Assembly: GCF_003790525.1 (NCBI RefSeq)
Contig: NZ_CP033635.1
Strand: one strand, 5' to 3'
Length of the DNA: 64,000 nt
Source: Escherichia coli
GTDB taxonomy: Bacteria; Pseudomonadota; Gammaproteobacteria; Enterobacterales; Enterobacteriaceae
In this document: piece after piece, positions 47,403 to 55,277 of the stretch
How the letters are laid out: each line of letters opens with the position of its first letter
Numbering within the stretch: position 1 is the first letter of the stretch
Notes under the pieces: model-generated
The model's input: the letters and a program-made list of their open reading frames with translations, nothing else
What the model was told of the DNA's origin: nothing
The model's database searches: none
Translations under genes and position numbers: made by a program

Positions 47403-49073
47403 ATGGATAATGCAGAACTCGCCATTGGTATCGATCTCGGTACTACCAATAGTTTAATTGCCGTCTGGAAAGACGGTGCCGCGCAATTAATTCCAAATAA
47501 GTTCGGTGAATATTTAACACCATCCATAATTAGCATGGATGAAAATAATCATATTTTAGTCGGAAAACCGGCTGTATCACGGCGTACTTCGCATCCGGAT
47601 AAAACGGCAGCGTTATTTAAACGTGCAATGGGCAGTAATACCAACTGGCGGTTAGGCAGCGACACATTTAACGCGCCAGAACTGTCCTCTTTGGTATTAC
47701 GCTCATTAAAAGAAGATGCCGAAGAATTTCTGCAACGTCCGATTAAAGATGTGGTGATCTCCGTTCCGGCTTATTTCAGCGATGAACAACGCAAGCATAC
47801 CCGTTTAGCAGCGGAGTTAGCCGGGTTAAATGCGGTACGCTTAATTAATGAACCCACAGCAGCTGCGATGGCATATGGCCTGCATACGCAACAAAATACC
47901 CGCTCGCTGGTTTTTGATCTCGGTGGCGGCACGTTTGACGTCACGGTGCTCGAATACGCCACGCCGGTGATTGAAGTTCACGCCTCCGCTGGCGACAACT
48001 TTCTTGGCGGCGAAGATTTTACTCATATGCTGGTGGATGAAGTTTTAAAACGCGCCGCAGTGGCTAAAAACATGCTCAACGAAAGTGAGCTGGCAGCCCT
48101 GTACACCAGCGTGGAAGCGGCAAAATGTAGCAATCAATTACCGCTGCAAATTAGCTGGCAGTATCAGGAAGAAACGCGTGAGTGCGAATTTTACGAGAAC
48201 GAACTGGAAGATTTGTGGTTGCCGCTGCTCAATCGCTTGCGAGTGCCGATTGAACAGGCGTTGCGCGATGCACGTCTGAAGCCAAGTCAAATCGACAGTC
48301 TGGTGCTGGTTGGCGGCGCATCACAAATGCCGCTGGTGCAGCGAATCGCCGTGCGTCTGTTTGGCAAATTACCGTATCAAAGTTACGATCCGAGCACCAT
48401 TGTCGCGCTGGGCGCAGCAATCCAGGCCGCCTGCCGCTTACGCAGTGAAGATATTGAAGAAGTGATCCTCACTGATATTTGCCCCTACTCCTTAGGTGTT
48501 GAAGTTAACCGCCAGGGCGTTTCCGGCATTTTCTCACCGATTATTGAACGAAATACCACTGTGCCGGTGTCGCGAGTAGAAACTTACTCGACCATGCACC
48601 CGGAGCAGGATTCAATAACGATTAATGTTTATCAGGGAGAAAATCACAAAGTTAAGAATAATATACTGGTTGAATCCTTTGATGTTCCGCTGAAGAAAAC
48701 CGGGGCTTATCAGTCTATTGATATTCGCTTTAGTTATGATATTAACGGATTGCTTGAAGTTGACGTGCTTCTGGAAGACGGCAGCGTTAAGTCCAGAGTC
48801 ATTAACCACAGCCCGGTAACGTTAAGTACCCAGCAAATTGAAGAGAGTCGGGCACGGTTATCCGCATTAAAAATTTATCCGCGCGATATGCTCATCAACC
48901 GTACCTTTAAAGCCAAACTGGAAGAGTTATGGGCGCGGGCGCTGGGTGACGAGCGAGAAGAGATTGGCCGGGTAATCACCGATTTTGATGCGGCGCTGCA
49001 ATCAAACGATATGGCCCGCGTCGATGAAGTTCGTCGACGGGCGAGCGATTATTTGGCCATTGAGATCCCTTAA
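47403..49073 (+). CDS. hscC: Hsp70-family chaperone HscC (Hsc62)
   Basis: 556 aa; actin-like ATPase motifs IDLGTTNS, DLGGGTFD; no C-terminal EEVD-type lid tail. Confidence 0.9.
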   Translation: MDNAELAIGIDLGTTNSLIAVWKDGAAQLIPNKFGEYLTPSIISMDENNHILVGKPAVSRRTSHPDKTAALFKRAMGSNTNWRLGSDTFNAPELSSLVLRSLKEDAEEFLQRPIKDVVISVPAYFSDEQRKHTRLAAELAGLNAVRLINEPTAAAMAYGLHTQQNTRSLVFDLGGGTFDVTVLEYATPVIEVHASAGDNFLGGEDFTHMLVDEVLKRAAVAKNMLNESELAALYTSVEAAKCSNQLPLQISWQYQEETRECEFYENELEDLWLPLLNRLRVPIEQALRDARLKPSQIDSLVLVGGASQMPLVQRIAVRLFGKLPYQSYDPSTIVALGAAIQAACRLRSEDIEEVILTDICPYSLGVEVNRQGVSGIFSPIIERNTTVPVSRVETYSTMHPEQDSITINVYQGENHKVKNNILVESFDVPLKKTGAYQSIDIRFSYDINGLLEVDVLLEDGSVKSRVINHSPVTLSTQQIEESRARLSALKIYPRDMLINRTFKAKLEELWARALGDEREEIGRVITDFDAALQSNDMARVDEVRRRASDYLAIEIP

Positions 49074-49080
49074 ACACGGC

Positions 49081-49180
49081 TGCCGGATGCGGCGTAAACG
49101 CCTTATCCGGCCTACTCGTAGGTCGGATAAGATGCGTTAGCATCGCATCCGACGTTGAAGGATAAGATGCGTTAGCCTCA
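49081..49180. repeat. BIME (cluster of 2 to 3 REP elements) between convergent hscC and djlC
   Basis: TGCCGGATGCGGCGTAAACGCCTTATCCGGCCTAC / GTAGGTCGGATAAGATGCGTTAGCATCGCATCCGAC / partial third copy. Confidence 0.75.
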
Positions 49181-49183
49181 CAT

Positions 49184-53432: not shown

Positions 53433-54136
53433 AGGTCGCTCATATCCTTAAGCGTTTCCGGGCATGTGGGGTAGTCAGCCAGTGGTTGCCAGGGTAAGGT
53501 CGCGTAATATGCATCGTCACTGGCAAATAATTGATAAAACATATCATTGCCGGAATCGTCGTATTCTTTACGCGCTAAGAATTCACGTAATAAAGGCAGA
53601 TCATCATCCTCGGGAGACTGCCAATATTGCCGACCAAAGGTATAACCGGCAAAGTATTGCCGCCAGTGACTATAATAACGTAGAGCCCGTAGATGAATGC
53701 GCGACTGGATCCACAGGCTTTCTTCTTCACTCAACCAGTTATTAAGTACGCCCATTCGGCTTAAAAAACCCATCCGGACATAATCCCAGGCTTTAATTCC
53801 TCCCTCACCACAGCATTCGGCGGTGCTGGCGACAAATTGCGCATAAGCCTGACCTTGCTCATTTAATTCAGCAAGATAGTCACGCCATTCACATGGCGAA
53901 TAACGAAACCAGCAGTGATAAAACCCTGCCAACCGCGCGGCATGACCGTTATCAATCATTCGGTAAATTGTGCGCAGCAGGTCATCACGGTCATCAATTC
54001 TCCAGGAGGAAGAAAGGTCAAAAAAGCGTGTACCTAAATACATTTTGGGGGATGAATGCGAAGGTAAACAGCATTCATTGCGTATTTCCATCGGAGTGGA
54101 AAGTGCAAACAATATTTTTTGCGACTCCATGTCCAT
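53429..54136 (-). CDS. ybeR: DUF1266 protein YbeR, translationally coupled to djlB
   Basis: 235 aa from ATG 54136 (ORF-track start 54163 is an extension); paralog of YbeU; ATGA overlap with djlB. Confidence 0.8.
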
Positions 54137-54299
54137 ATAATTCATCCTTAAATATTCATTCAATGAATATTAACCACGTTGCGAGGCTCATTTATTTATA
54201 CTTTTCTGACGCAACATAATACGCATAAAATAAGGCTTACGCAAAAATGGAACACATAAAAATATAATATGTTTTATATGCAACCATAAGGAAATGATA

Positions 54300-55277
54300 A
54301 TGATTTTTACGTCAAGTTGCTGCGATAATTTATCAATAGAAAAGATTGTTAAACGTGCTGAAAAAGGCGATAGCGAGGCTCAATATATTGTTGGGTTTTA
54401 TTATAATCGCGATAGCGCAATTGACTCTCCGGACGACGAAAAAGCCTTCTACTGGCTGAAGCTTGCCGCTGAACAAGGCCATTGTGAAGCACAATATTCC
54501 TTAGGGCGGAAATACTCCGAGGATAAAAGCCGTCATAAAGATAATGAGCAAGCCATCTTTTGGCTGAAAAAAGCTGCCCTACAAGGCCATACTTTCGCTT
54601 CCAACGCCCTTGGCTGGATACTGGATCGTGGAGAAGACCCCAACTATAAAGAAGCGGTTGCCTGGTATCAGATAGCCGCGGAGAGCGGAATGCCTTATGC
54701 GCAAAATAATCTTGGATGGATGTACAGAAATGGTAACGGAGTCGCACAAGACTATGCGCTGGCATTTTTCTGGTACAAACAAGCTGCATTACAAGGCCAT
54801 AGTTACGCGCAAGACAACCTGGCCGATCTCTATAAAGACGGAGAAGGCGTTGCTCAAAACAAGACACTCGCCGCATTCTGGTATTTGAAAAGCGCACAGC
54901 AGGGTAATCGGCATGCCCAGTTTCAAATTGCATGGGATTATAACGCTGGCGAAGGGGTGGACCAGGACTATAAGCAAGCGATGTACTGGTATCTGAAGGC
55001 TGCCGCTCAGGAAAGCGTCGGCGCTTACGTCAACATCGGTTATATGTATAAACATGGACAAGGCGTTGAGAAAGATTATCAGGCCGCCTTTGAATGGTTT
55101 ATGAAAGCCGCTGAATGCAATGACGCCACTGCCTGGTATAACCTGGCCATTATGTATCACTACGGAGAAGGAAGACCTGTCGATCTCCGACAGGCTCTCG
55201 ACCTGTATCGTAAAGTTCAGGCATCCGGTACCAGGGATGTCAGTCAAGAAATCCGTGAGATTGAAGATTTACTGTAA
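54300..55277 (+). CDS. ybeQ: Sel1-repeat protein YbeQ
   Basis: 325 aa from ATG 54300 (better RBS spacing than 54294); at least 7 Sel1-like repeats. Confidence 0.85.
   Translation: MIFTSSCCDNLSIEKIVKRAEKGDSEAQYIVGFYYNRDSAIDSPDDEKAFYWLKLAAEQGHCEAQYSLGRKYSEDKSRHKDNEQAIFWLKKAALQGHTFASNALGWILDRGEDPNYKEAVAWYQIAAESGMPYAQNNLGWMYRNGNGVAQDYALAFFWYKQAALQGHSYAQDNLADLYKDGEGVAQNKTLAAFWYLKSAQQGNRHAQFQIAWDYNAGEGVDQDYKQAMYWYLKAAAQESVGAYVNIGYMYKHGQGVEKDYQAAFEWFMKAAECNDATAWYNLAIMYHYGEGRPVDLRQALDLYRKVQASGTRDVSQEIREIEDLL

Follow-up and report, generated by a model that had tools for sequence, protein, structure and literature searches.

The Hsp70 protein HscC and its J-proteins DjlC and DjlB were described as the third Hsp70 system of Escherichia coli (Kluck et al., 2002, as cited in PMC8215388). 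According to that account, HscC is an Hsp70 with a truncated lid, its ATPase is stimulated only by DjlC, and both DjlB and DjlC carry HPE in the J-domain. The loss of hscC, or of djlB and djlC together, results in sensitivity to Cd2+ (PMC8215388; PMC6794478), DjlC was demonstrated experimentally to be a true tail-anchored protein (PMC6794478), and in growing K-12 cells HscC and the Djl proteins are below detection (PMC8215388). Reviews published up to 2026 still present an Hsp70/J pair whose phenotypes are limited to Cd2+ and UV. The same locus is considered here in a 64-kb stretch of E. coli DNA (contig NZ_CP033635.1; hereafter the window), which is 100% identical, as the reverse complement, to E. 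coli SMS-3-5 (NC_010498.1). From hscC to ybeQ, it encodes HscC, DjlC and DjlB together with two proteins of the DUF1266 family (YbeU and YbeR) and two Sel1-repeat proteins (YbeT and YbeQ). This cassette was noted in LT2 and MG1655 in the genomics literature, without analysis. In the literature searched, DUF1266 appears only as a row of an expression table, and the reviews mention neither the DUF1266 nor the Sel1 genes. In the RRS paper that was found, djlC served only as an insertion site.

An original prediction made from the DNA sequence presented the locus as a tandem duplication of a three-gene module (DUF1266, J-like protein and an obligatory Sel1 partner) and as a dedicated, membrane-associated Hsp70 system, possibly acquired horizontally; it also named the HscC–DjlB/DjlC pairing, which is indeed published. 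The analysis presented below shows that the DUF1266 gene accompanies djl and hscC wherever enough flanking sequence is available in the genomes scanned. It is somewhat more probable than not that the DUF1266 protein is a physically associated, obligate component of an inner-membrane-tethered, three-part Hsp70 machine. The Sel1 proteins are lineage-specific accessories.

Conservation of DUF1266 genes with djl and hscC

A full HMMER search with YbeU resulted in 356 representatives at E ≤ 0.001 and 74 at E ≤ 1e-10. Homologues 29–40% identical to YbeU are encoded in unrelated neighbourhoods in the same arrangement: the DUF1266 gene is followed, with 4 nt overlapping or only a few bases in between, by a gene for a J-like protein of about 810–930 aa, and then by a convergent gene for an Hsp70 of about 556 aa. 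Vibrio (P0166) and Aeromonas (P0172), whose DUF1266 homologues are only 29–31% identical, have the triad too, as do additional metagenome loci whose flanks are unrelated. When a single genome of each species was scanned, 78 loci were obtained, representing Pseudomonas (about 57 species), Erwinia, Rahnella, Pectobacterium, Gilliamella, Marinobacter, Bowmanella, Klebsiella spallanzanii and Escherichia. Enough flank (at least 4.7 kb downstream) was available for 68 of them, representing eight genera (Pseudomonas, Erwinia, Pectobacterium, Rahnella, Gilliamella, Marinobacter, Klebsiella and Escherichia), and all 68 contain DUF1266, a same-strand Djl gene and HscC. The hscC gene is convergent in 67 of these loci and lies on the same strand in Marinobacter. 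The stop codon of the DUF1266 gene overlaps the start codon of the djl gene at every junction (76/76), as ATGA in 73 cases and as TAATG in three.

The association holds in the opposite direction as well. When metagenomes were scanned with the J-protein motif HPExDP[EQ]GF as the anchor, a DUF1266 gene was directly upstream of each of the 69 intact djl genes with upstream room, and hscC was located within 4 kb of 52 of the 56 genes with downstream room; the DUF1266- and Djl-anchored collection scans each comprise the best 80 loci by likeness to the query. Clustering of the flanking open reading frames (ORFs) revealed no fourth gene common across genera, only shadow ORFs and one cluster from a minority of loci. 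The same flanking gene families recur at many Pseudomonas loci, pointing to a stable site on the chromosome and away from a defence island. The predicted partnership of DUF1266 with Djl and HscC is thus borne out from both sides, and the 68 triads, together with the membrane-anchored J-proteins described below, also bear out a dedicated membrane-associated Hsp70 system. The expectation of co-occurrence across genomes stood for hscC, djl and DUF1266 outside E. coli, but for the Sel1 genes it did not extend beyond Escherichia, Salmonella and Citrobacter.

Evidence for a possible association of DUF1266 with the J-protein

YbeU matches Pfam DUF1266 (PF06889, E 4.4e-45, residues 41–216) and is predicted to have an all-helical fold. 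DUF1266 is compact and globular, with R121 and G168 invariant and W117, D118, R127, E139 and H65 nearly invariant. A sequence search of the PDB with the DUF1266 profile found no solved relative; Foldseek against AFDB50 returned the DUF1266 family and E. coli sequences under other names, and the fold searches provided no functional lead. Among the other distant DUF1266 proteins, most have signal peptides and fall into a separate branch.

The co-folding of DUF1266 with the J-like protein, which the original prediction had proposed, was carried out with AlphaFold2 (AF2) on YbeU joined through a (G4S)5 linker to residues 1–445 of DjlC, using an alignment of 21 locus-paired sequences. The model has a predicted local distance difference test score (pLDDT) of 83.6 and a predicted template modelling score (pTM) of 0.77, with a disordered linker (pLDDT about 31). 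A pTM of 0.77 despite the disordered linker is expected if the positions of the two bodies, of 235 and about 370 aa, are confident with respect to one another, and is difficult to obtain otherwise. In Paenibacillaceae, the HPE J-domain, tetratricopeptide repeats (TPR) and DUF1266 are joined in a natural one-chain fusion. The linked co-fold and this fusion suggest that YbeU and DjlC may bind each other.

The Paenibacillus fusion (L096:233-1726; L097/L098:9001-10494) is a soluble protein of 497 aa encoded just downstream of a MalT-like STAND (signal transduction ATPase with numerous domains) regulator. Its sequence cluster in Paenibacillus sp. 32O-W and Aneurinibacillus also contains a separate “J domain” protein (286 aa) and “DUF1266” proteins (211 and 218 aa); their accessions are almost adjacent, as they would be after a split of the gene.

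Architecture of the J-proteins and HscC

In the DjlC model, an N-terminal J-domain with HPE is followed by an acidic linker, a helical solenoid resembling TPR or HAT (half-a-TPR) repeats and one C-terminal transmembrane segment; with the J-domain fold at its N-terminus, DjlC agrees with class C J-domain proteins. Of 86 Djl sequences, 84 have HPE in place of the canonical HPD, one has PPE and one has no match; HPE is regarded as the one tolerated replacement of HPD (PMC13254874). A PDB sequence search with DjlC found no solved relative. Outside the clade of Escherichia, Salmonella, Citrobacter and K. spallanzanii, the J-protein has a long form of about 890 aa. It consists of the HPE J-domain, about 310–385 residues alignable with DjlB and DjlC, about 400 more helical residues and a C-terminal membrane domain; in the single long form that was scanned, this domain matches DUF805 (E 1.8e-7). 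The enterobacterial short forms retain the first part of the long form and then a single tail anchor, and a single C-terminal hydrophobic segment was found in all 11 short forms. Membrane anchoring is universal, by two to three transmembrane segments in most long forms and by the single tail anchor in short forms.

The hscC product scores 388 bits with the NCBIfam DnaK model (cut-off 648) and 380 bits with the HscA model (cut-off 709). It has the Hsp70 architecture, is an equivalog of neither DnaK nor HscA, and is named hscC by the NCBI annotation pipeline PGAP. Its homologues in the triads have 555–563 aa and match Pfam HSP70. Among the HscC homologues of L004-L092, those of long-form triads have a conserved acidic-hydrophobic C-terminus, ...ALDELRL/Y or ...LDQLRL, and the enterobacterial ones end in ...DYLAIEIP or ...EYLGIDEPKAP. 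By analogy with EEVD, a TPR-like partner might dock on this tail.

The hscC and djlC alleles of SMS-3-5 are unusually diverged from those of most E. coli, and hscC is only 90–95% identical in 4005 E. coli genomes. When compared to strain AR_0058 (L003), hscC is 93.4%, djlC 95.3%, ybeU 99.7% and the flanking genes 97–99% identical. The ratio of synonymous to other differences is 86:19 for hscC and 43:20 for djlC; the mostly synonymous differences indicate purifying selection and genes under constraint. The divergent hscC–djlC stretch (47403-50635) looks like an old or recombined haplotype spanning both known partner genes.

Duplication of the DUF1266–Djl pair and the Sel1 genes

Identity is 61% between YbeU and YbeR (E 8e-109) and 50%, along the entire protein, between DjlC and DjlB (E 2e-158), in agreement with the predicted paralogy of ybeU-djlC and ybeR-djlB. 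The similarity between YbeT and YbeQ is confined to individual Sel1 repeats (about 37%). As these two proteins match only at the repeat level and differ in build, duplication is proven for two of the three genes only. In Salmonella and Citrobacter, two DUF1266–Djl pairs are directly tandem, 12–70 bp apart, in the order ybeQ, DUF-Djl, DUF-Djl, hscC; the one ybeQ-like gene is an orthologue at the same position (Salmonella L087, Citrobacter L088), and ybeT is missing. It follows that the duplicated unit is the two-gene pair. K. spallanzanii contains a single DUF1266–Djl pair and no Sel1 gene. With ybeT lacking in Salmonella and Citrobacter, and with one pair and no Sel1 gene in other genera, the tandem duplication of a three-gene module is not supported.

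In neighbour-joining (NJ) trees, the HscC-proximal (YbeU/DjlC) and distal (YbeR/DjlB) copies cluster by position across Escherichia, Salmonella and Citrobacter, with DjlB joining the distal copies of Salmonella and Citrobacter; the bootstrap values of the proximal and distal clades are moderate (48–64%). We conclude that the DUF1266–Djl pair was duplicated before Escherichia, Salmonella and Citrobacter diverged and that ybeQ joined in their lineage. We also conclude that ybeT, which separates the two pairs, is confined to Escherichia, through insertion in that genus or through loss from Salmonella and Citrobacter.

Sel1 genes beside the triad are restricted to Escherichia (ybeT and ybeQ) and to Salmonella and Citrobacter (ybeQ only), so the Sel1 partner is not obligatory. 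No ybeT was found in Salmonella, Citrobacter, K. spallanzanii or any long-form locus. Outside Escherichia, Salmonella and Citrobacter, no Sel1 gene was found within 10 kb, barring two near-identical Gilliamella-related metagenome loci (L007/L008), in which one Sel1 gene, probably unrelated to the triad, lies 5 kb away. YbeT is probably extracytoplasmic and may merely share a promoter region with ybeU-djlC, whereas the other proteins of the block face the cytoplasm. YbeQ is cytoplasmic, and its docking on the system is plausible.

A third Djl-like gene was observed between ybeL and ybeQ in Escherichia sp. MOD1-EC7003, a member of a cryptic clade (L009:3648-5986). It encodes the HPE motif and a C-terminal transmembrane tail, is split into ORFs of 93 and 344 aa, and is probably a decaying paralogue or pseudogene. 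It is followed by a gene whose 321-aa product begins with a hydrophobic, signal-like segment.

Organization, regulation and distribution of the locus

The order of genes along the window is rihA, hscC, djlC, ybeU, ybeT, djlB, ybeR, ybeQ, ybeL and leuS, and the positions of the seven genes from hscC to ybeQ agree between ORF calling and the RefSeq annotation (Table 1). Coordinates, strands and a reading of the junctions confirm the location next to hscC, the ATGA overlaps and the opposite-strand Sel1 genes noted in the original prediction. Both DUF1266/Djl junctions read ...CTATGAAA..., with a 4-nt overlap. The gap between hscC and djlC holds two inverted repetitive extragenic palindromic sequences (REPs; 49082-49115 and 49118-49153) and a partial third (49160-49184). 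The first of them recurs at 16856-16889 of the window with 2 mismatches in 34 nt, and a query spanning the cluster has a median of 20 matching places per E. coli genome. The cluster had been described as a bacterial interspersed mosaic element (BIME) bounding the block; the REPs are present, but they lie inside the block, yet they do bound its duplicated part. A scan of 46–57 kb against Rfam matched no RNA family, and a promoter and terminator consensus scan was uninformative, with fewer promoter-like sites than in shuffled sequences.

Table 1. Features of the hscC–ybeQ block (positions in the window)
Feature	Position	Strand	Description	Source
hscC	47403-49073	+	Specialised Hsp70 ATPase, 556 aa; motor common to both units	ORF calling and RefSeq
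REP/BIME-like cluster	49082-49184	.	Convergent hscC–djlC gap	Inverted-repeat search and sequence reading
djlC	49184-50635	-	Tail-anchored J-protein, 483 aa	
ybeU	50632-51339	-	DUF1266 protein, 235 aa, cytoplasmic, predicted all-helical; stop overlaps djlC start (ATGA)	
Divergent control region, ybeU-djlC / ybeT	51340-51440	.	AT-rich, GC 0.28	
ybeT	51441-51995	+	Small Sel1-repeat protein, 184 aa, 3 repeats (Pfam Sel1 x3), N-terminal hydrophobic segment	
djlB	52005-53432	-	Paralogous tail-anchored J-protein, 475 aa, HPE motif	
ybeR	53429-54136	-	Paralogous DUF1266 protein, 235 aa; stop overlaps djlB start (ATGA); RefSeq start used	
Second divergent control region, ybeR-djlB / ybeQ	54137-54299	.	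AT-rich, GC 0.28	
ybeQ	54300-55277	+	Sel1-repeat protein, 325 aa, 8 repeats (Pfam Sel1 x8), no signal sequence	

The AT-richness of the block, earlier judged by eye, was confirmed by comparison with the flanks. Its GC content is 0.469, below that on either side (0.518 and 0.523), no other 7.9-kb stretch of the window has a lower one, and the GC content at third codon positions (GC3) is 0.39–0.50 in its genes and 0.51–0.64 in neighbour genes. Over-expression of SlyA in K-12 raised the expression of ybeT 4.1-fold and of ybeU-hscD (hscD being djlC) 2.8-fold, and ybeT and ybeU-djlC are listed in the H-NS regulon (PMC5797941). At 25 °C, an hns mutant of strain 042 had 308-fold raised expression of a DUF1266 gene that is possibly, but not necessarily, ybeU or ybeR (PMC7582179).

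Of the 5426 complete E. coli genomes, the number with a match is 4409 for hscC, 4406 for the proximal unit and 4447 for the distal unit. These near-equal counts, compared as totals, suggest that the parts of the block are present or absent together; about 19% of the genomes are without the whole block, and some have lost the distal unit alone. In block-less strains (E. coli E7-1N7 and similar), rihA is located 45 bp from ybeL with a REP-like hairpin between them (L002:3321-3364). An alignment of empty and filled sites showed no direct repeats, insertion scars or integrase remnants at the junction, which makes insertion indistinguishable from deletion. No integrase or transposase is annotated in the block, tRNA genes not having been scanned for. 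Of the marks of a genomic island, atypical composition and presence/absence polymorphism were found, and mobility signatures were not. The AT-richness of the block, its absence from about 19% of genomes, its reported H-NS regulon membership, its response to SlyA and the rise of the strain 042 gene are all compatible with an accessory locus that was possibly acquired.

A scan of 2.9 million viral contigs of IMG/VR found none carrying the block; two “phage” matches are unannotated fragments of 1.5–2.6 kb. The E. coli “plasmid” matches are mostly records of 0.7–4.9 Mb, which look like chromosomes or chromosome fragments filed as plasmids. In Erwinia persicina, a YbeU-like DUF1266 gene is carried by large non-mobilizable plasmids of 130–165 kb (four records, H30-H33); in the other genera, the triad is chromosomal. 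A contig labelled Paenibacillus sp. USDA918EY ends with a fragment 98% identical to E. coli ybeU (L013, 10001-10387), which is most likely assembly contamination, not transfer.

A proposed three-part membrane machine and its alternatives

The starting points of the proposed mechanism are the gene order, the overlaps, the two-way co-conservation and the domain composition found here, together with the published tail anchor of DjlC and its stimulation of HscC; from these we infer the physical DUF1266–Djl binding, the adaptor role of DUF1266 and any role of the Sel1 proteins. HscC would be the ATPase of a machine tethered to the inner membrane. DjlC and DjlB are anchored in the membrane C-terminally, with the HPE J-domain and the TPR-like solenoid facing the cytoplasm. 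YbeU and YbeR would each be made by translational coupling with their own J-protein and would dock on its solenoid as a stoichiometric subunit. The resulting DUF1266–Djl pair may serve as a client-selecting platform at the cytoplasmic face of the inner membrane, where the HPE J-domain would trigger ATP hydrolysis in HscC, and HscC would clamp and remodel the bound client. It is also proposed that in the Escherichia/Salmonella lineage the J-protein lost about 400 residues and the DUF805 multi-pass anchor, and that duplication of the DUF1266–Djl pair gave two alternative targeting modules with one common HscC. Sel1-repeat genes would then have been added divergently, ybeQ first and ybeT later (in Escherichia only), to a locus that in this lineage is reported in the H-NS regulon and responds to SlyA.

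That DUF1266 is a physically associated and obligate part of such a machine is the reading we favour, with somewhat better than even confidence, and within it an adaptor is the first-choice role. The complete proposal is more tentative, and our confidence in it falls a little short of even. It holds that DUF1266 is an unrecognised obligate third subunit, a co-chaperone or adaptor on the TPR-like solenoid of a membrane-anchored HPE J-protein, that HscC systems across Gammaproteobacteria are three-part membrane machines, and that E. coli has two alternative DUF1266–Djl targeting modules with Sel1 accessories of its own lineage. Several points weigh against the favoured reading. The co-fold is a linker trick with only 21 sequences, and its pTM was read without the predicted aligned error (PAE), the interface pTM (ipTM) or a scrambled-pair control. 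No dedicated Hsp70 is encoded within 9 kb of the gene for the Paenibacillus fusion. The third Djl of MOD1-EC7003 is without an upstream DUF1266 gene, the sole such Djl seen. Limiting the collection scans to the best 80 loci means that distant exceptions could be missed. The non-detection of the proteins in K-12 and the E. coli genomes without the block indicate that the block is dispensable. Finally, as far as sequence goes, an adaptor, a client and a regulator are indistinguishable for DUF1266.

The last point concerns two other roles for the same protein, which are the main competitors of the adaptor role. DUF1266 might be a dedicated client or cargo, like IscU, presented by Djl and switched by HscC in its conformation or membrane association. 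The strict one-to-one conservation with overlapping stop and start codons agrees with this, and a compact globular domain with an invariant polar/aromatic set would suit a regulated functional site; no Hsp70-binding motif was identified in DUF1266, although none was sought, and a one-chain fusion of a client with its J-protein, as it would be in Paenibacillus, is less usual than fusion of an adaptor. We consider a client role unlikely. It is still less probable that DUF1266 is a brake of the CbpM type, which would bind the J-protein and gate the access of HscC until a signal arrives. Stoichiometric co-translation would suit an inhibitor, but the co-fold does not tell a J-domain contact from a solenoid contact, YbeU matches DUF1266 alone in Pfam and shows no relation to CbpM, and the DUF1266 gene is upstream of the J-protein gene, not downstream.

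The remaining alternatives concern the locus as a whole. One of them is the tandem duplication of a three-gene module (DUF1266, J-protein and Sel1) in which the Sel1 protein would be an indispensable binding partner. In its favour are the position of each pair facing a Sel1 gene across an AT-rich divergent promoter, the common SlyA response and H-NS regulon membership of ybeT and ybeU-djlC (PMC5797941), and the TPR repeats between the J-domain and DUF1266 in the Paenibacillus fusion. This is nevertheless hardly probable: outside Escherichia, none of the 65 genome loci with the triad has a Sel1 gene within 10 kb; Salmonella and Citrobacter contain one Sel1 gene for two pairs, and K. spallanzanii contains none; and YbeT and YbeQ are unlike in size, in the number of repeats and in their probable compartment. 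The presence/absence polymorphism in E. coli, the low GC content, the reported H-NS regulon membership and the plasmid carriage in Erwinia persicina would fit a variable island with an anti-phage or other conflict system, and ybeT was a match with phage Arnold in transposon-directed insertion-site sequencing (TraDIS). The ybeT knockout, however, behaved like the wild type under phage challenge. PADLOC, run on eight proteins, gave nothing for HscC, DjlC, DjlB, YbeU and YbeR and only marginal repeat-type PtuA matches for the Sel1 proteins, and the block itself is without a nuclease, toxin or other effector gene. With its absence from the viral contigs and the apparently stable chromosomal site in Pseudomonas, a conflict system is very improbable.

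Comparison with known Hsp70 systems

With HscA–HscB–IscU, the dedicated system of Fe-S cluster assembly, the proposed machine has in common a specialised Hsp70, a dedicated J-protein, a third protein encoded together with them and no nucleotide-exchange factor gene in the locus. HscB, however, is a soluble HPD protein, and the third component, IscU, is a defined client bearing the LPPVK motif, whereas the J-protein of the HscC system is membrane-anchored with HPE, and there is no sequence relation between the two systems beyond Hsp70. In CbpA–CbpM, a J-protein with a co-encoded modulator, CbpM is encoded downstream, is soluble and works with DnaK, while the DUF1266 gene precedes that of the J-protein, and its product has no Pfam relation to CbpM and is part of a membrane system that has an Hsp70 of its own. 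DjlA, when compared to DjlC and DjlB, is anchored N-terminally, carries HPD and uses DnaK. To our knowledge, there is no DUF1266 partner for DjlA or for eukaryotic TPR-J co-chaperones of the DNAJC3/p58IPK, DNAJC7 or Sec63/Sec72 type.

More than 20 years after its characterization, HscC is the one E. coli Hsp70 without a known cellular job. The co-encoded DUF1266, the constant membrane anchoring and the optional Sel1 genes lead to concrete experiments on this job, for which the single-copy triads of Pseudomonas and Aeromonas are simpler models of the system, and they provide the first functional context for the Pfam domain DUF1266. The HscC/DjlB/DjlC pair, the HPE motif, the DjlC tail anchor and the Cd2+ and UV phenotypes are already published. 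To that two-component Hsp70/J pair, the present description adds DUF1266 as a third, conserved member, and it presents DjlC and DjlB of E. coli as shortened versions of an ancestor of about 890 aa with a DUF805 anchor. What is new is thus the third component and the ancestral long-form architecture of a known Hsp70/J system, and not a new class of system.

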